64,000 nucleotides of DNA from Octopus vulgaris. Lineage: Eukaryota. Where the stretch lies: NCBI GenBank assembly GCA_951406725.2, contig OX597818.1:93620001-93684000 (forward strand). The letters are read 5' to 3'. The notes beneath the pieces are model-generated. The model made no database searches. It saw nothing but the letters and a program-made list of their open reading frames with translations, and was not told where the DNA came from. Positions within the stretch are counted from its first letter, which is position 1, and every line of letters starts with the position of its first letter. Below are positions 15,851-46,712 of this stretch, piece after piece. The position numbers were made by a program, and so were the translations under genes.

Positions 15851-15881
15851 TACAGATTGAGTATAGATATATATACATACG

Positions 15882-15923
<42 letters not shown>

Positions 15924-15964
15924 TATATTCATGTAGATATACATGTGTGTACATATATACATAT

Positions 15965-16014
<50 letters not shown>

Positions 16015-16235
16015 TCATTATAGGGTGGCAAAAAAAATTTTTTAGAATTTTTTTGCCACCAGCGGCCTAGTGGGAAAAAATTAAATAGTCATAGACCATT
16101 TATAAGTTCAACATCACAATCAAGGAACGGCCATAATAGGCCATTCACCCACTAGAAATAACAGCCAAAGCTTCAACCGCAAAATAACATTAATTCCGTA
16201 AACCAGGAGAAAATTAAAAAAACATTTACCCTGTA

Positions 16236-16342
16236 ATTTCTTATACGATGCACCGTTTCATCTACTGTTTAATGGTAAACTAACCTGATTAAATTAAATC
16301 AAGCCAATCTTCCATAGGCCCTTAGATTCCTCAGTAAGAAAT
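16236..16342 (-). ncRNA. Type I hammerhead ribozyme, monomer 1 (also 16726-16832, 17215-17321, 17705-17811, 18197-18303, 18686-18792, 19178-19284)
   Basis: ATTTCTTA-CTGAGGA-ATCTA-[58 nt]-TAGAT-GAAA-CGGTGCATCG-TA/TAAGAAAT. Full CUGANGA/GAAA core, 8-bp stem I, 5-bp stem II, near-palindromic stem III and GUA cleavage triplet. Confidence 0.88.
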
Positions 16343-19300
16343 AGCCAGAACGGAACAGATATTTTCACGAGGCATTTCTGTCCCTGCCTCGGCAATATCT
16401 GACCTAAAATTTTCAAATCATCGCACTCGCGCCAAATTTATCGGCAGCAAATAAATATAAGCCACCGATTCCATTACGGAATCAACCAGAAAATTCGTAA
16501 TTAATCAATATAGGGTGGCAAAAAAGATTTTTTAGAATTTTTTTGCCACCAGCGGCCTAGTGGGAAAAAATTAAATAGTCATAGACCATTTATAAGTTCA
16601 ACATCACAATCAAGGAACGGCCATAATAGGCCATTCACCCACTAGAAATAACAGCCAAAGCTTCAACCGCAAAATAACATTAATTCCGTAAACCAGGAGA
16701 AAATTAAAAAAACATTTACCCTGTAATTTCTTATACGATGCACCGTTTCATCTACTGTTTAATGGTAAACTAACCTGATTAAATTAAATCAAGCCAATCT
16801 TCCATAGGCCCTTAGATTCCTCAGTAAGAAATAGCCAGAACGGAACAGATATTTTCACGAGGCATTTCTGTCCCTGCCTCGGCAATATCTGACCTAAAAT
16901 TTTCAAATCATCGCACTCGCGCCAAATTTATCGGCAGCAAATAAATATAAGCCGCCGATTCCATTACGGAATCAACCAGAAAATTCATAATTAATCAATA
17001 TAGGGTGGCAAAAACAATTTTTTAGAATTTTTTTGCCACCAGCGGCCTAGTGGGAAAAAATTAAATAGTCATAGACCATTTATAAGTTCAACATCACAAT
17101 CAAGGAACGGCCATAATAGGCCATTCACCCACTAGAAATAACAGCCAAAGCTTCAACCGCAAAATAACATTAATTCCGTAAACCAGGAGAAAATTAAAAA
17201 ACATTTACCCTGTAATTTCTTATACGATGCACCGTTTCATCTACTGTTTAATGGTAAACTAACCTGATTAAATTAAATCAAGCCAATCTTCCATAGGCCC
17301 TTAGATTCCTCAGTAAGAAATAGCCAGAACGGAACAGATATTTTCACGAGGCATTTCTGTCCCTGCCTCGGCAATATCTGACCTAAAATTTTCAAATCAT
17401 CGCACTCGCGCCAAATTTATCGGCAGCAAATAAATATAAGCCGCCGATTCCATTACGGAATCAACCAGAAAATTCATAATTAATCAATATAGGGTGGTAA
17501 AAAAAATTTTTTAGAATTTTTTTGCCACCAGCGGCCTAGTGGGAAAAAATTAAATAGTCATAGACCATTTATAAGTTCAACATCACAATCAAGGAACGGC
17601 CATAATAGGCCATTCACCCACTAGAAATAACAGCCAAAGCTTCAACCGCAAAATAACATTAATTCCGTAAACCAGGAGAAAATTAAAAAAACATTTACCC
17701 TGTAATTTCTTATACGATGCACCGTTTCATCTACTGTTTAATGGTAAACTAACCTGATTAAATTAAATCAAGCCAATCTTCCATAGGCCCTTAGATTCCT
17801 CAGTAAGAAATAGCCAGAACGGAACAGATATTTTCACAAGGCATTTCTGTCCCTGCCTCGGCAATATCTGACCTAAAATTTTCAAATCATCGCACTCGCG
17901 CCAAATTTATCGGCAGCAAATAAATATAAGCCGCCGATTCCATTACGGAATCAACCAGAAAATTCATAATTAATCAATATAGGGTGGCAAAAAAAATTTT
18001 TTAGAATTTTTTTTTGCCACCATCGGCCTTGTGGGAAAAAATTAAATAGTCATAGACCATTTATAAGTTCAACATCACAATCAAGGAACGGCCATAATAG
18101 GCCATTCACCCACTAGAAATAACAGCCAAAGCTTCAACCGCAAAATAACATTAATTCCGTAAACCAGGAGAAAATTAAAAAAACATTTACCCTGTAATTT
18201 CTTATACGATGCACCGTTTCATCCACTGTTTAATGGTAAACTAACCTGATTAAATTAAATCAAGCCAATCTTCCATAGGCCCTTAGATTCCTCAGTAAGA
18301 AATAGCCAGAACGGAACAGATATTTTCACGAGGCATTTCTGTCCCTGCCTCGGCAATATCTGACCTAAAATTTTCAAATCATCGCACTCGCGCCAAATTT
18401 ATCGGCAGCAAATAAATATAAGCCGCCGATTCCATTACGGAATCAACCAGAAAATTCATAATTAATCAATATAGGGTGGCAAAAAAAATTTTTAGAATTT
18501 TTTTGCCACCAGCGGCCTAGTGGGGAAAAAATTAAATAGTCATAGACCATTTATAAGTTCAACATCACAATCAAGGAACGGCCATAATAGGCCATTCACC
18601 CACTAGAAATAACAGCCAAAGCTTCAACCGCAAAATAACATTAATTCCGTAAACCAGGAGAAAATTAAAAAACATTTACCCTGTAATTTCTTATACGATG
18701 CACCGTTTCATCTACTGTTTAATGGTAAACTAACCTGATAAAATTAAATCAAGCCAATCTTCCATAGGCCCTTAGATTCCTCAGTAAGAAATAGCCAGAA
18801 CGGAACAGATATTTTCACGAGTCATTTCTGTCCCTGCCTCGGCAATATCTGACCTAAAATTTTCAAATCATCGCACTCGCGCCAAATTTATCGGCAGCAA
18901 ATAAATATAAGCCGCCGATTCCATTACGGAATCAACCAGAAAATTCATAATTAATCAATATAGGGTGGCAAAAAAAATTTTTTAGAATTTTTTTTTGCCA
19001 CCAGCGGCCTAGTGGGAAAAAATTAAATAGTCATAGACCATTTATAAGTTCAACATCACAATCAAGGAACGGCCATAATAGGCCATTCACCCACTAGAAA
19101 TAACAGCCAAAGCTTCAACCGCAAAATAACATTAATTCCGTAAACCAGGAGAAAATTAAAAAAACATTTACCCTGTAATTTCTCATACGATGCACCGTTT
19201 CATCTACTGTTTAATGGTAAACTAACCTGATTAAATTAAATCAAGCCAATCTTCCATAGGCCCTTAGATTCCTCAGTAAGAAATAGCCAGAACGGAACAG

Positions 19301-19889
19301 ATATTTTCACGAGGCATTTCTGTCCCTGCCTCGGCAATATCTGACCTAAAATTTTCAAATCATCGCACTCGCGCCAAATTTATCGGCAGCAAATAAATAT
19401 AAGCCGCCGATTCCATTATGGAATCAACCAGAAAATTCATAATTAATCAATATAGGGTGGCAAAAACAATTTTTTAGAATTTTTTTGCCACCAGCGGCCT
19501 AGTGGGAAAAAATTAAATAGTCATAGACCATTTATAAGTTCAACATCACAATCAAGGAAAAAAAATTGGTGGCAAAAAAATTCTAAAAAAAAAAAATTTT
19601 TTTTGCCACCCTATATTGATTGTGATGTTGAACTTGATTGTGATGTTGAACTTATAAATGGTCTATGACTATTTAATTTTTTGCCACTAGGCCGCTGGTG
19701 GCAAAAAAATTCTAAAAAATTATTTTTACCACCCTATATTGATTAATTATGAATTTTCTGGTTGATTCCGTAATGGAATCGGCGGCTTATATTTATTTGG
19801 CGCGAGTGCGATAATTTGAAAATTTTAGGTCAGATATTGCCGAGGCAGGGACAGAAATGCCTCGTGAAAATATCTGTTCCGTTCTGGCT

Positions 19890-19996
19890 ATTTCTTACTG
19901 AGGAATCTAAGGGCCTATGGAAGATTGGCTTGATTTAATTTAATCAGGTTAGTTTACCATTAAACAGTAGATGAAACGGTGCATCGTATAAGAAAT
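19890..19996 (+). ncRNA. Type I hammerhead ribozyme in the inverted monomer
   Basis: Same motif read on +: CTGAGGA 19898-19904, GAAA 19973-19976, predicted cleavage after 19988. Confidence 0.88.
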
Positions 19997-20114
19997 TACA
20001 GGGTAAATGTTTTTTTAATTTTCTCCTGGTTTACGGAATTAATGTTATTTTGCGGTTGAAGCTTTGGCTGTTATTTCTAGTGGGTGAATGGCCTATTATG
20101 GCCGTTCCTTGATT

Positions 20115-20151
<37 letters not shown>

Positions 20152-24945: not shown

Positions 24946-26552
24946 TTGCGGTCAAAATGTTCAGAACGGCATTGTTTTCGTCAGAAAAGTAGGCATAAGT
25001 TTTTATCAAAGTTGTTTTATATTCTATAATTTTCACAGACAATAAATACAATATTATTTGTTATTGCCTGAGAATTTGGTGTAATTTAAGAGGATAATAC
25101 AAAAGTTATGGATGATTTAGTGATTTACTGCAAAACCCATGGCGGCCAAAATGATCAGAACAGTTGCTTTTACTCCGTGTTTTAGTATATTTAACCGGCG
25201 AACTCTAATGTTTTGAATTTGTTTATGTGACGGTTCATTTACTAAACATTAGTAAGAATATTTGCAGTGTACTTTGTTAATATAATGCCACTTACTCCGT
25301 TACCAATTCGTCAGCAGATTATTAAGCTTCGAAAGAAGGATAATTTAAGTATTGGATCTATTGCAAAGATTGTTAACAAGTCAAAAAGTGTTGTACACGG
25401 TATTCTTAAGGTCTACGATGATAGTGGTTCGTGTGAAGCAAGAAAATTTACAGGTAGGCCAAGAAAAACGACCAAGAGAGAAGATCCTGCAATGGTAAAG
25501 TTGGTTAAAAAGGACAGATTTAAAACTGCTGCTGCTGTTTCTCGGAAAATGAGCATTGTATTGAAGAAAACTTTATCTCGAAAAACTGTATCTCGTCGTT
25601 TAGTTGAACATGACCTACAAGCAAGAGCACCTGCAGTGAAGCCACTGATCAGCTCCAAGAATAAAAAGTGTCGTCTTACCTTTGCAACCAAACATGTGTT
25701 GTGGTCTCAAGAAAAATGGCAAACGATGCATTTCAGTGATGAATCTAAGTTTATGTTATTTGGTTCAGATGGGAAAAGTAGGTGAAAAATTGTTGCCTAA
25801 ATGCCTTAAGACTAGTGTTAAATTTGGTGGAGGAAGTGTCATGGTTTGGGGTATGATATCTGGAGATGGTGTGGGCCCTTTGGTGCGATTACATGAAAAG
25901 GTAAATGCAGGAGTTTATAAACAACTTGTAAAAGATCATGTCTTGCCTGTGCTGAGAAATTTAACTAAGCGACCACCCATATTCATGCAGGACAATGCCC
26001 CATGTCACAAGGCTAAGGTGGTCATATACTTCCTCAAGGCTGAAAAGGTTATTGTTATGGATTGGCCTGCTCAAAGCCCAGATCTCAATCCTATTGAAAA
26101 TGTGTGGAATATTCTAGGAGAACGTTCGAAAGCCAGAAATCCTAAAACTGCTGAGCAATTATGGAATGCCCTTCAGGAAGAATGGAATAAGATCACCCAG
26201 CAAGAAATTGAAAATTTAATTTCCTCATGCAGTCGAAGATGTCAGAGTGTGATTGAAGCCAAAGGGCTTCACACTAAATATTAAATAATTCCAGTATTCT
26301 CTGTCATTTTTGATTATTTTGTTATTTTTTTCAACCGTTCTGATCATTTTGGCCACCATGGGTTTTGCAGTAAATCACTAAATCATCCATAACTTTTGTA
26401 TTATCCTCTCAAATTACACCAAAATCTCAGACAATAACAATTAATATTGTATTTATTGTCTGTGAAAATTATAGAATATGAAACTACTTTGATAAAAAAG
26501 TATATCTACTTTTCTGACGAAAACAATGCCGTTCTGAACATTTTGGCCGCAA

Positions 26553-34731: not shown

Positions 34732-34946
34732 CAGTTGGCCAAATGCTATTTTGGAAGATATTCAAAATGCCATGTAGTGGTACTGAACCTGAATCCACCT
34801 GGTTGTGGAATGAAACTCTTAACCTCACAGCCAAGCATATGCACGTGCACACACACACACACACTGCACAAGTAAGATTTTTTCTTTAGGAAGATTGCCA
34901 AAGAATGTTGCTTAACAAACCTTTGTTTTTTTTTTCCATGTTTCAG

Positions 34947-35312
34947 ACCCTACGTCTGGAGGTGGTGGAGGTATTGACCATGGTGTATTGGACCCTGACA
35001 AAAGTTATCTCCGAAAGTTTTCAACTGACACCATCATAATCCTAATATCTGTTGCTTATCTCGTAGCCATTTTAATATGTATTATTATTTTAATTGTACG
35101 CTGCGTGAGATCTTCAAGGGAAGAGAAGAAATATTCAGAACGGCCTCTAGCCTACAATAATTATGGTTTAACGCCTGCCACTTCAGTGAATTCATCAGTT
35201 ATGAGTGTATATGCCACTAAACCATCCTCAGATATTAAATCTATTGGTAGAAACAAGTCATTCAGGTCAAGAATGGCCAATTCCACTGAGGACACTGACA
35301 GCGTTTTTGAAG
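34947..35312 (+). CDS. Membrane protein coding exon 4 (Gly linker, TM helix, juxtamembrane tail)
   Basis: AG/GT boundaries, phase 1/1. IIILISVAYLVAILICIIILIV is followed by basic RCVRSSR. Confidence 0.9.
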
Positions 35313-35698
35313 GTAATTCCTTTTTTTTGTGTGTGTGTGTGTGTCTTTCTTTTAAATGCTTTCTTGTAAATTTATTACTGATGTAACGGTAATGGAATTA
35401 TTTTTAAGTGGACAGGTTGCAGTTGTCAGGCAAAAGCTTGATGAATTTTTTTTTCACAAGATGGAATATGTCAGAGTTGTGTGAAGGAACAACTGAAGCT
35501 GAGAATGAAGAAAAAAGAAGATTCTCAGAAAACTGTAGTGAAATAATCATTGACTGGTTGGCGTGGTTACAACTACTGATCTGACGTGTTGAGTGCATGG
35601 ATATGTAATAACATAGAAATGAGATTGGATTGTTGAAGTTATTGAATTTTGTAACTGAATGAGTGGTATAAGTTCCTGCAACAAGTTGATTTTAGTTA

Positions 35699-38275: not shown

Positions 38276-39362
38276 CAGTACTGTTTTGGTTCAGTACTGT
38301 TTGGGTTCAGTACTGTTTGAGCATGTCGATACCAATGTGATCTCCAATGAACATTTGATGAAGTGGGAGCACCATGGGTGAATTGATCTAGATGTTTGCT
38401 ACAAAATGAATTCCACAAAAAGCTCCCATGACTATGTCACGGTGTTAACAGCAATGTTAGGCATACCACCTATCTATACTGAGTTAGGTATAAAGAAGAC
38501 TAGCAAGGCCCAGATCACAGTAATGTTTGTTGTAATGATCTAATGGTGACATCTCCATTAAAGACAAAAGCATTTTATACAGGAGGCACAATGGCCCAGT
38601 GGTTAGGGCAGCGGACTCGCAGTTTCGATTCCCAGACCGGACGTTGTGAGTGTTTCTTGAGTGAAAACACCTAAAGCTCCATGAGGCTTTGGCAGGGGGG
38701 GGTGGCGATCCCTGCTGTACTCAAACGGCGGTGCATCAGCATGGCCGCAGCTCTGAGCTGAAACTTTAAAACAAACAAAAAAAACAGGAGTTATTTTTGC
38801 TTCCTAGGTATCTCAGTAGCACTAAGAGTGATCTGACAACACACACACACACACATTTTGTATATATCATCATTGTCATCACTATTATAACATTTATATT
38901 TTCATACTTATTTGACTTCTTACAGCCAAATGCTCTTTTTCTTGCTAACCCTCATCTGTTTCCAAACAAGGGAATGTTTTCTCCTCGTGTCAGAGTGTTT
39001 TCCCTGGATATTGTGAACTGCTTCACTTGTGAGGCCTTGATGCTTGCTTAGAATTAGCACATAATATTAAAACAATGAGACAGCACATATCCATACATAT
39101 TTTGAGTGGTAGGCTTAACCCATCATTTGGTTTAACGTCATCTCATGGTATGTCAGATGTTTTTAGTGGAATATTTAATATAGTTATAGTGTGTATGTAT
39201 TTATATTTGTATATGTAGTAAATAAGAAGTATACACTGTAGAATCTCTGATTATATATAATTATATCTGTATTTAACAACATATAATACTGTTGTTGAGA
39301 ACAATTGTGTCTGTGAGCAGATTGTAATGTATTTCTTTATTTTTTTTAATTTTTTGTTGAAG

Positions 39363-40282
39363 CAATGCAATCAAACATGAAGGCACAGCTAAATGCACCC
39401 TCTTCTTACTCAAGTTCTTACAATAACCCATCCTACCAACGGACACCTCCTACTAAAAGAATGTCTGGTCGAAGAACTGCCTTCCAGAATGAAGCATCTG
39501 CTGCTGTCCGTACATCAAGAGGTCACAGAAGAAACCATGAGACTGCTGTCAAAGAAGTAAACAAACCCGTTGAGTCTGTGAAATCATCTGTATCACAACA
39601 AATACAGACAGATTTATATGATGACGACGATGGTGGTGAGGTGACAAGTGAAGTTGAGTTGGCTTCAACTGGGATGAACACTGACCCAGAAATGACTGAT
39701 CATGGTATTCAATGTGAGGTTGAAACTAGTGATGATATCATCAATTCAGATGAAGTTAATGCGATTTCTAAGCAGGCATTTGAATACCTGAAGCAGCACA
39801 AACATTTACAAAGCCCTTCATTGTCACATCCTCATGGCACAGTGAGTGATGATGAGATGGGGCAGAAGTATGAACATAATCGATACTACTATCCTGCACA
39901 GCAGGGTCTGCATGGCTCCCCAGCCATGCATCGCTTTGCTCATCCCATGGAGCAATATGGCTCTCCTGAACCACACACTCTTCATTTTGATCCTGCTTTA
40001 AGACAGACGAATATTACTCCACCCAGTTACATGTTAAGGGCCAATGGTTATGGACCACAAAGAGGTCCTAAGCCACCAGTTCTGACTGACTTGGAGGACC
40101 GATACATACCAGTCTATTCTTATTTAGTAAACCGAGGCTACAAAATTCCTGAATCTGACAAAAATGCTTCTGGAAGCTCAGCAACAGGAACAAGCCATCA
40201 TTCAGATTTGAGAATGGTTCAGACAGATGATTCCGATTTCTCTGCAAATTTGGATAGTGGTGTTGAACTGATGAAAAGATGA
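39363..40282 (+). CDS. Membrane protein terminal coding exon (cytoplasmic tail)
   Basis: Poly-T tract and AG at 39361-39362, phase 1 matching exon 4. 305-codon open frame; spliced CDS of 1803 nt = 600 aa. Confidence 0.9.
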
Positions 40283-44684: not shown

Positions 44685-45084
44685 CTAGCAGTATCGCCCG
44701 GCGTTGCTCGGGTTTGTAAGGGAAATGACTATATAAGCATTTTTAGAGATGTAAAGAATAATAGCCATCTCAATATGGCTAACCACAAAGGGGGTGGGGT
44801 GTTACTGTAGCTTTTTACGTTCTGAGATTTAATAATAAATTTTTAGAGAGTTACTTCCCTTATATATGCCAAAAATGCATTAAAAATGGGAAAAATTGCT
44901 GGTAAATTTTTTTTTTAAATCGTAGACTCATCATAGACGCGCTCTAATACCCAGAGGGGCTCGATATGAATCACGACTATAAGATACCTGGTTTTGGTTA
45001 AACTGCACCGCAAAATGTGGGAGTAGTTAGGAATCTAAATCGTAGGAGACTGACAGCACACAACCTCACTTTTATATATAAAGA
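44685..45084 (-). mobile_element. Non-autonomous Helitron nested in a Tc1-type MITE (~44545-45193)
   Basis: 5' TC and 3' hairpin CCCG-AGCAACGC-CGGG followed by CTAG, inserted between A and T. Host TIRs TGCAAAAGTAGGTATACAGT / ACTGTATACCTACTTTTGCA. Confidence 0.85.
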
Positions 45085-45201
45085 TAACTATAATAATACT
45101 TTTATGGTAACCTTTTATTTTTTGATAAAAATAAACGTGTATGGTACATGTTTTCTTTTCTTATAACTGTATACCTACTTTTGCACCACCCTGTGCATAT
45201 G

Positions 45202-46526: not shown

Positions 46527-46712
46527 ATCCAAACATGAAAACACAAAGAGAAAACAACGCGAGGACATGGAACAAGTATAGTGTTACTGGATGCTCAGGA
46601 AAGGAAAGAAAGAAGGAGGATTTAATGTTTCGAGCAGAGCTCTTCGTCAGAAACATAAGAAAAGGAAAGATGGAGGAAAAAAATTGCCAATGGTACACAC
46701 GCGGTCACACAC
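46522..46712 (-). mobile_element. Non-autonomous Penelope-like remnant with a minimal hammerhead motif
   Basis: TTT-CTGACGA-A-GAGC-TCT-GCTC-GAAACATT-AAA. The 3' end abuts (TA)n. Same family as 10979-11170. Confidence 0.6.

Follow-up and report, generated by a model that had tools for sequence, protein, structure and literature searches.

For those retrozymes of animals that lack long terminal repeats (non-LTR retrozymes), circular RNAs were proposed as templates of a reverse transcriptase (RT), with Penelope-like elements (PLEs) as candidate helpers (Cervera and de la Pena 2020, PMC7229834). In the sections drawn on here, neither the 2020 proposal nor a 2026 preprint on vertebrate retrozymes (Li, Clavereau and Pollet, bioRxiv 10.64898/2026.07.22.740005) contains a mechanistic footprint of how these elements move. 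According to PMC8557442 and PMC3846280, a PLE insertion includes a copy that is inverted and truncated at its 5' end, and the tail is found at one of its two ends; PMC8557442 also gives a bias towards (TA)n. With a purified PLE protein, the tail corresponded to the stretch between two internal RT start sites, and both strands of AT-rich targets were cut and extended (PMC11167929). Here, we analyzed a stretch of 64,000 nucleotides of Octopus vulgaris DNA (contig OX597818.1, positions 93,620,001 to 93,684,000, forward strand; hereafter the window), which harbors an array of ~490-bp hammerhead-bearing monomers. We consider it highly probable that this array is one insertion of a non-autonomous hammerhead retroelement, an animal non-LTR retrozyme, copied in trans by PLE machinery, and its young, abundant family supplies a footprint of that process.

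The whole insertion (16008..20119, locus L070) comprises two head-to-head arms of the monomer between (TA)n target tracts at 15862..16009 on the left flank and 20118..20148 on the right; its ends merge into the TA repeat and are uncertain by 1-3 bases. The unit was numbered from the cleavage site, in the sense of the ribozyme. The long arm (16008..19559, minus strand) contains approximately 7.2 monomers, in agreement with a tandem repeat call by TRF (16007-19559, period 490, 7.2 copies, 98% matches). Its 3' end lies at position 236, termed site B, and it is 5'-truncated at position 117. The inverted short arm (19633..20119, plus strand) holds about one monomer, has its 3' end at position 131, termed site A, and is 5'-truncated at position 120. 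Where the two arms meet (19560..19632), a short fragment templated from monomer positions 183-231 lies together with a duplication of 18 bp. A stretch of approximately 103-105 nt spanning sites A to B, with two hairpins, occurs at the left end only (16008..16112, minus strand). An earlier note on this DNA had overlooked that one arm is inverted, that the 3' ends are fixed at two sites and that the target is (TA)n; these features tie the element to Penelope-like retrotransposition.

That note had described the repeat as an array of hammerhead monomers lacking an open reading frame (ORF), and the longest ATG-initiated ORF in a monomer dimer is indeed 18 aa, at a GC content of 36.5% (under 45%). 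The four hairpin pairs that it listed are all present. The array unit has no ORF with RT and GIY-YIG domains and is therefore not itself an autonomous PLE. No LTR layout was seen in the element, and no tRNA was found in the 64-kb window.

The search for related copies covered the 2.8-Gb genome, in which the window lies on contig C5. The monomer gave at least 243 matches on many contigs (40 of 1,290 candidates were scored), the full-length ones being 97-100% identical. Exact patterns of the ribozyme core resulted in 2,515 matches in which N7 is not G and 233 in which it is G, at least 2,748 in all, and the reversed core pattern, used as a control, matched nowhere. A separate pattern, which catches older variants only, yielded 161 matches. 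The dispersed arrays that the earlier note had proposed to look for by BLASTN thus exist within this genome. Units measure 483-499 nt, arrays range from less than one to 14 full units, and subfamilies are 84-99% identical to the unit of the window. The earlier note had placed ~490 nt at the long end for such elements, which holds against the ~170-400 nt given in PMC7229834 but not against the range of 51-972 bp reported in bioRxiv 10.64898/2026.07.22.740005. In public sequence runs, 20 of the 23 rows contain the stretch; all are contigs, and none is on record as RNA, although for 14 of the 20 an RNA origin was guessed. The repeat is a family of small, protein-free mobile elements and not a static satellite. 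Another inverted insertion, an older variant of the family, was observed about 6 kb upstream of the window (G000:C5:93613716-93614711).

Three sets of loci, 97 in total and not random samples, were fetched for the analysis of insertions. The first set comprises the 40 best hits and is biased to long, young arrays; the second comprises the first 37 loci in order along contig C1 for the pattern in which N7 is not G; and the third comprises 20 loci fetched later and chosen because their hits ran in one direction. From 100 matches in 37 loci, the number of insertions in the genome is estimated at about 1,000. Across these loci, the 3' ends of arrays fall at site A (~131; 126-136) or at site B (~236; 230-246). 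Head-to-head inverted, 5'-truncated copies were present in 65 of the 97 loci (30/40, 24/37 and 11/20). One A end was paired with one B end in 56 of the 64 resolved inverted insertions (28/29, 21/24 and 7/11 in the three sets), A+A or B+B pairs occurred in 0/64, and in the remaining 8/64 one arm ended elsewhere. Locus L177, which holds two insertions, was left out of the pair statistics and counted once in the end tally, and L038, which has an N gap, was left out of the end tally.

The outward 3' ends in 77 loci were followed by TA-like sequence in 66/69 and 55/61 cases, respectively, 121/130 altogether. Some insertions seem to have a single arm, but in several of them (L039, L064, L161, L171, L211 and L223-L225) a stub of the opposite end is present. 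Either arm can be the longer one, with median lengths of 759 and 716 nt. The 5' ends are scattered round the unit and are mostly joined with an overlap of 0-6 nt or with short insertions. Among the loose ends listed for four public runs, site A was visible as a TA loose end in three runs, from three coded organisms. By analogy with the PLE insertions described above, the A-to-B stretch is most readily read as the PLE tail, marking two putative reverse-transcription start sites. A footprint of the Penelope type points to the enzyme that probably copies the retrozyme. One feature weighs against this assignment: the tail of 103-105 nt exceeds the 30-40 nt of the published descriptions (PMC8557442, PMC3846280, PMC11167929) and the 68-72 nt of two autonomous octopus families described below.

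A short element flanked by (TA)n lies in the flanks of L179, L174 and L059; its two ends are separated by roughly 100 nt, which gives a tail about as long as that of the retrozyme. The flank of L174 looks copied from neighboring DNA. Locus L219 was considered as a two-subfamily insertion and rejected, as it contains one subfamily with many indels. In the large hairpin of the tail, the loop (monomer positions 184-220) appears inverted between old (L172) and young copies, an arrangement that resembles the outcome of hairpin-mediated micro-inversion.

The same data bear on whether the array is a satellite or a rolling-circle DNA repeat of the Helitron type, in which the hammerhead would be a relic and the inversions fold-back or assembly artefacts. 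Local block duplication in some arrays and a few palindromic junctions (distance 0 in L031, L176 and L185) would suit such an origin. However, short arrays scattered over the genome, whose ends are fixed at two sites and lie in (TA)n, speak against it, and the A+B rule contradicts it. The junctions are not generally fold-backs either, since 7/53 lay within 20 nt against 4.4 expected, and fold-back priming was rejected as a general source of the inversion. The autonomous PLEs obey the same end rule, and the stems of the ribozyme covary, as described below. We regard this origin as very improbable.

When both strands of the entire window were searched with a descriptor, exactly eight type I hammerheads and no others were found. 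Seven lie on the minus strand, at 16236..16342, 16726..16832, 17215..17321, 17705..17811, 18197..18303, 18686..18792 and 19178..19284; the fifth has a U-G wobble at one stem II pair, and the seventh has one in stem I. The eighth (19890..19996) is on the plus strand, in the inverted arm. The minus-strand C3 positions are 16334, 16824, 17313, 17803, 18295, 18784 and 19276, with cleavage nucleotides at 16244, 16734, 17223, 17713, 18205, 18694 and 19186; the plus-strand hammerhead has C3 at 19898 and its cleavage nucleotide at 19988. Cleavage is predicted between 16244 and 16243 for the first motif, exactly where the earlier note had placed it, and between 19988 and 19989 for the eighth. The earlier note had assigned the hammerhead of each monomer to the minus strand, which is correct for seven of them, whereas the last monomer (19633-20119) is inverted. 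All 8/8 full units in the window carry the motif, and all eight hammerheads have the core elements named in that note: stem I of 8 bp, CUGAGGA, stem II of 5 bp, GAAA, stem III and the GUA triplet. Stem III is short, and stem II closes a structured insert of 58 nt. Dinucleotide shuffles of the monomer never matched the real score (0/20,000), and 7/20,000 gave any loose match. Of the hammerhead model scan that the earlier note had suggested, the descriptor part thus succeeded, whereas Rfam gave no hammerhead match at the gathering score and, at E values up to 10, only 12 weak unrelated matches, probably because of the long stem II insert.

In the predicted fold, stems I and II were well populated, and the hammerhead fold lay 1.5 kcal/mol above the minimum. 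The whole monomer folded better than 100 of 100 shuffles (z -5.2). Stem III has 4 bp around a palindromic loop, with a predicted pairing of only ~0.04-0.10 in a single monomer; its sequence is close to a palindrome, and pairing with the stem of another copy is predicted at -17.5 kcal/mol. A stem that is weak in the lone monomer and pairs with a second copy suggests that the hammerhead would cleave as a dimer, like the axolotl case described in PMC7229834.

The homologues differ from the window copy in a manner that preserves the pairing. In 14 chosen subfamily representatives, 99.2% of stem cells were paired and four pairs were changed on both sides. The covariation score of these representatives was not reached in any of 500 shuffles. 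The search patterns required the core and the outer stem II; they placed no constraint on stem I, on the inner pair of stem II or on the cleavage nucleotide. The constancy of the core and outer stem II in locus sets 2 and 3 was demanded by the patterns and is therefore no evidence; three of the four double-changed pairs are in stem I of the old subfamily, which no pattern required. N7 takes all four bases and N17 varies between A and C, and the same was seen in public runs not selected for it. Among the differences listed for the four public runs, from four coded organisms, those within the core affected N7 and, as an A-to-C change, the cleavage nucleotide, and the inner pair of stem II varied on each of its two sides. 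Of the cleavage junctions in 77 loci, 252/255 match the stem III/cleavage motif, and the remaining three carry substitutions. These comparisons support, without proving, structure-preserving selection on the stems; the covariation depends on few independent events among related sequences, which tells against it. Each tandem unit has one type I hammerhead and no ORF, copies are dispersed in their thousands, and the changes between subfamilies preserve the structure. The retrozyme reading of the earlier note therefore stands at the DNA level, and the array fits an animal non-LTR retrozyme by its DNA features.

Concerning the template, monomers of the same insertion were compared with those of other loci. 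In the first comparison, the divergence was 0.57% within the same arm and 0.63% between opposite arms versus 1.51% between loci; in the second, the corresponding values were 0.40%, 0.65% and 5.85%. The low divergence on both arms indicates that they come from one molecule or one source. For variant counts, 55 homopolymer and hairpin-loop positions were masked. Seventeen locus-private variants were fixed in all covering pieces, eight of them across both arms, and the arms differed by fixed variants in only 2 of 22 testable loci. A monomer circle is, by a modest preference, the simplest explanation of such one-haplotype arms. All 255 cleavage junctions keep their length, and the 5' ends are not piled up at the cut, which together argue against jumping between cut linear monomers; run-off at the cleaved 5' end was likewise not supported by the 5'-end positions. 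A joint that goes back 490 nt, found in 4/4 public runs, was rejected as a sign of circles because tandem DNA gives the same joint.

Several observations count against a pure monomer circle. Twenty-six locus-private variants occur in only some monomers. In L044, L161 and L175 such variant blocks recur with a period of 2 or 3, indicating that local duplication or multimeric templates also contribute. Three minor variants (L036, L055 and L165), plus one in L045, are common to both arms, a hint of heterogeneous multimers or gene conversion. A nearest-neighbor test on monomers, which favored neither side decisively, found the opposite arm closer in 42 cases, tied in 52 and farther in 65. From the literature, ribozyme cleavage is not required for PLE insertion according to PMC11167929, and 8/9 Xenopus dimers did not cleave in bioRxiv 10.64898/2026.07.22.740005.

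These points can be accommodated by the same element and PLE machinery with an uncut linear multimer from a homogeneous source array as the template. Long arrays would then grow later by unequal exchange, and the ribozyme would only free the RNA 5' end from host transcripts, circles playing no part in copying. The periodic blocks and shared minor variants favor such a template, as do the weak stem III of the monomer and the use of unprocessed RNA as the main substrate in PMC11167929. The 5' ends are also mildly enriched 5-25 positions past the cut, which points the same way (12/133 vs 5.7 expected; p 0.012 with the window of positions chosen after looking, scan p 0.29), although just 6/133 ends fall at positions 1-15 (4.1 expected). 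Against it, 29 minor variants are seen on a single arm at sites that the opposite arm covers as well, versus the three shared; the fixed differences between arms are as rare as stated; and both arms exceed 600 nt in 16/53 insertions. The fixation of subfamily variants in all monomers would, in addition, need repeated single-monomer bottlenecks. We give the linear multimer a minority share of our confidence, and the ligated monomer circle, read repeatedly, remains the preferred template by a small majority, with uncut multimers taking up most of what is left.

The genome contains autonomous PLEs that could provide the enzyme. A search for GIY-YIG gave 6,136 candidates, of which 150 were scored, and three PLE families were analyzed in detail; a degenerate RT-motif pattern for additional PLE families gave one match. 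The first, H2, is a hammerhead-bearing autonomous PLE with a 2.58-kb unit, an intact 717-aa ORF, a 68-nt tail and 2,438 pattern matches in the genome. It was found, with an intact copy, at L228 (G000:C1:57208650-57214300) and C1:57208871-57222561, in a 4+2 head-to-head tandem with the same layout as the retrozyme arrays; one of the two units read there has a frameshift. Its protein is 45% identical to that of the second family, a very young 727-aa PLE (L188, G000:C4:132437500-132446000; L172) with a compact type I hammerhead, a tail of ~71 nt and 8,311 pattern matches. For this family, 104 scored hits (of 29,617 candidates) were 99-100% identical. Pfam names nothing in the 727-aa protein, and the clusters to which Atlas links it are all unnamed, showing shares of HTH_animal and GIY-YIG. 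Both families pair one short with one long end, in 6/6 pairs of H2 and in 9/9 resolved pairs (10 tried) of the 727-aa family. The third family, a young 781-aa PLE (L101-L116, e.g. L114 1818-5518), has Pfam RVT_1 and GIY-YIG domains, a (TA)n target, a tail of ~40 nt and a separate 479-aa frame preceding its ORF; the descriptor scan did not find a canonical hammerhead in it.

Owing to its position beside retrozyme loci, H2 is the best lead. Its exact pattern had seven matches in 6/97 loci against 0.40 expected; the 727-aa family had three against 1.38 expected in the same loci, though it is 3.4-fold commoner than H2 and has the same target. In 50 GIY-YIG control loci, the H2 pattern was found 0 times and the 727-aa pattern once, and two of these loci hold H2-like variants at 88-94%. 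At L061 and L214, an H2 3' end is joined head-to-head to a retrozyme 5' end with no TA between them, and at L220 a 26-nt piece of the H2 ORF is joined directly to a retrozyme 5' end. Loci L171 and L172 were rejected as retrozyme-PLE fusions, as (TA)n separates the retrozyme from the PLE.

The case for H2 has to be set against a considerable list. H2 was first noticed inside the retrozyme loci, and only L214 and L220 (2/20) came afterwards, from one-direction loci. The cross-family joins break the end rule (B+short at L061, A+short at L214), a copy of H2 immediately upstream of the L220 piece matches it, so that the piece may be copied from neighboring DNA, and deletion next to a pre-existing neighbor would yield the same joins. 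Joins of the retrozyme to other repeats also exist (L037, L041, L178). The monomer showed no similarity to the 781-aa family and no significant similarity to the 727-aa family (best E 0.067 over 19 nt) or H2 (best E 0.06-0.2). Tail-to-tail comparison with the PLE families gave p 0.075-0.94, and a seeming likeness to the tail found in the 727-aa family did not reach significance (p 0.075 and 0.197). Between two PLE types of a rotifer, PMC3846280 describes no cross-mobilization. We therefore name H2 the leading candidate helper only tentatively, at slightly under even chances.

Another parent would be implied if the unit were the pseudo-LTR (pLTR) of an autonomous PLE outside those found here, with the arrays as deletion derivatives mobilized by that parent and not by H2. 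In bioRxiv 10.64898/2026.07.22.740005, 24/57 Xenopus retrozyme families are homologous to known transposons, nearly all PLEs, and the candidate counts above show that the octopus genome holds many PLE families. However, none of the 97 loci, including two of the old 84-85% subfamily, has an arm continuing in the same direction into a PLE ORF; the unit has only its 18-aa ORF, and all that resembled it in the 50 GIY-YIG loci was one separate fragment of 53 nt from the retrozyme family itself. A pLTR origin thus seems to us rather unlikely.

Some further repeats were observed beside these families. Locus L178 (1560-2090) contains a second retrozyme-like family, with a ~360-nt unit and a type I hammerhead, placed head-to-head to an arm of this retrozyme. 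On the minus strand of the window, at 46650 and 11092, another abundant repeat with a compact hammerhead-like core ends in (TA)n and also lies beside several fetched loci. More type I hammerhead-like motifs with long stem II inserts were noted in other repeat families at L074, L078, L109 and L113. A repeat of ~165 nt at 44924-45092 of the window is directly joined to a retrozyme arm in L037 and recurs in L056, L157, L176 and L187.

Combining these observations, insertion of the retrozyme by PLE machinery may proceed as follows. Read-through RNA would be cut by the hammerheads, probably as dimers. The trans-acting copier would be the RT/GIY-YIG protein of a PLE, which would nick both strands of a (TA)n tract. 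A single RNA would serve for the priming of two cDNAs, at A for one and at B for the other, with ~103 nt between these sites, and the truncated cDNA ends would be joined through 0-6 nt of microhomology. Since the distance downstream from the cut is only 131 nt for A and 236 nt for B, every copy with the ribozyme core would have been made across an intact or re-ligated junction. In a more speculative version, which we consider doubtful, a dimer of the PLE protein (H2 or a relative) would sit on one ~490-nt circle, its subunits priming at A and B from the two cut (TA)n strands and both running round the circle with strand displacement, resulting in two multimeric arms of one haplotype. If true, what the genome preserves in these insertions would be the trace of twin rolling-circle reverse transcription, and the helper would recognize an RNA structure while having no sequence in common with its passenger. 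The 2.58-kb H2 unit, with its 4+2 head-to-head tandems, might itself use a circle.

The footprint predicts both RT start sites to the nucleotide and a strict rule of one of each, and there is a candidate helper whose ORF is intact, so that mobilization becomes directly testable in the existing in vitro PLE assay. It also sharpens the PLE mechanism: the assay described in PMC11167929 reports no strand difference between start sites, yet like-with-like pairs in the genome number 0/64 for the retrozyme and 0/15 for the two autonomous families.

Elsewhere in the window, plus-strand frames at 34916-35386 and 39350-40282 read like host-gene exons, one of them with a hydrophobic, transmembrane-like stretch, and the array may lie in or near that suggested gene. 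Two overlapping plus-strand frames at 25246-26284 resemble, by eye, a Tc1/mariner transposase.

In the literature searched, no account of this family, of cephalopod retrozymes or of a tail footprint in retrozymes was found, although Dfam, Repbase or paper supplements could hold one. The words 'inverted', 'octopus' and 'cephalopod' do not occur in the main text of PMC7229834, nor do 'ribozyme' and 'retrozyme' in that of an O. vulgaris repeat paper (PMC13282606). Compared with the animal non-LTR retrozymes of coral, the mussel Mytilus (350-390 bp) and axolotl, as described in PMC7229834, the octopus family likewise consists of non-coding units in tandem, each bearing a single type I hammerhead. 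It also has a low GC content, copies in the thousands and, as in axolotl, a weak stem III that suggests dimer cleavage. It differs in its 490-nt unit with a 58-nt stem II insert. The definition of vertebrate retrozymes in bioRxiv 10.64898/2026.07.22.740005, no fewer than two successive units that hold a complete hammerhead, applies to this array, as do its length range and its conclusion of PLE dependence. That conclusion was based on co-occurrence and pLTR homology in 35 species, none a mollusc among those it covers, whereas ours is based on an insertion footprint, with no homology to the three PLE families compared.

Plant LTR retrozymes (PMC7229834, bioRxiv 10.64898/2026.07.22.740005) are similarly non-autonomous and ribozyme-processed, with a proposed circular RNA stage. 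In contrast, they have a type III hammerhead, LTRs, a primer-binding site and polypurine tract (PBS/PPT), a 4-bp target duplication and a Gypsy helper, whereas the octopus element has type I hammerheads in tandem units and no LTR layout.

In insertion structure, the retrozyme resembles endonuclease (EN)-containing PLEs (PMC8557442, PMC3846280, PMC11167929). Both have an inverted, 5'-truncated copy placed head-to-head and units in tandem, with the tail limited to one end; both insert into (TA)n or AT-rich targets and carry a type I hammerhead upstream of the 3' ends. The retrozyme lacks their ORF, has a tail of 103-105 nt instead of 30-40 nt, and both of its arms are often multimeric. Non-autonomous Chlamys elements such as MRC1, as presented in PMC8557442, are also non-autonomous, of PLE type and inserted as multicopy head-to-tail arrays; unlike the octopus family, they share 3' sequence with autonomous families and belong to N-terminal-EN clades without canonical hammerheads. 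The class of element is already described, and the octopus family is by its DNA features a further member of it that, with good confidence, works like a non-autonomous PLE.

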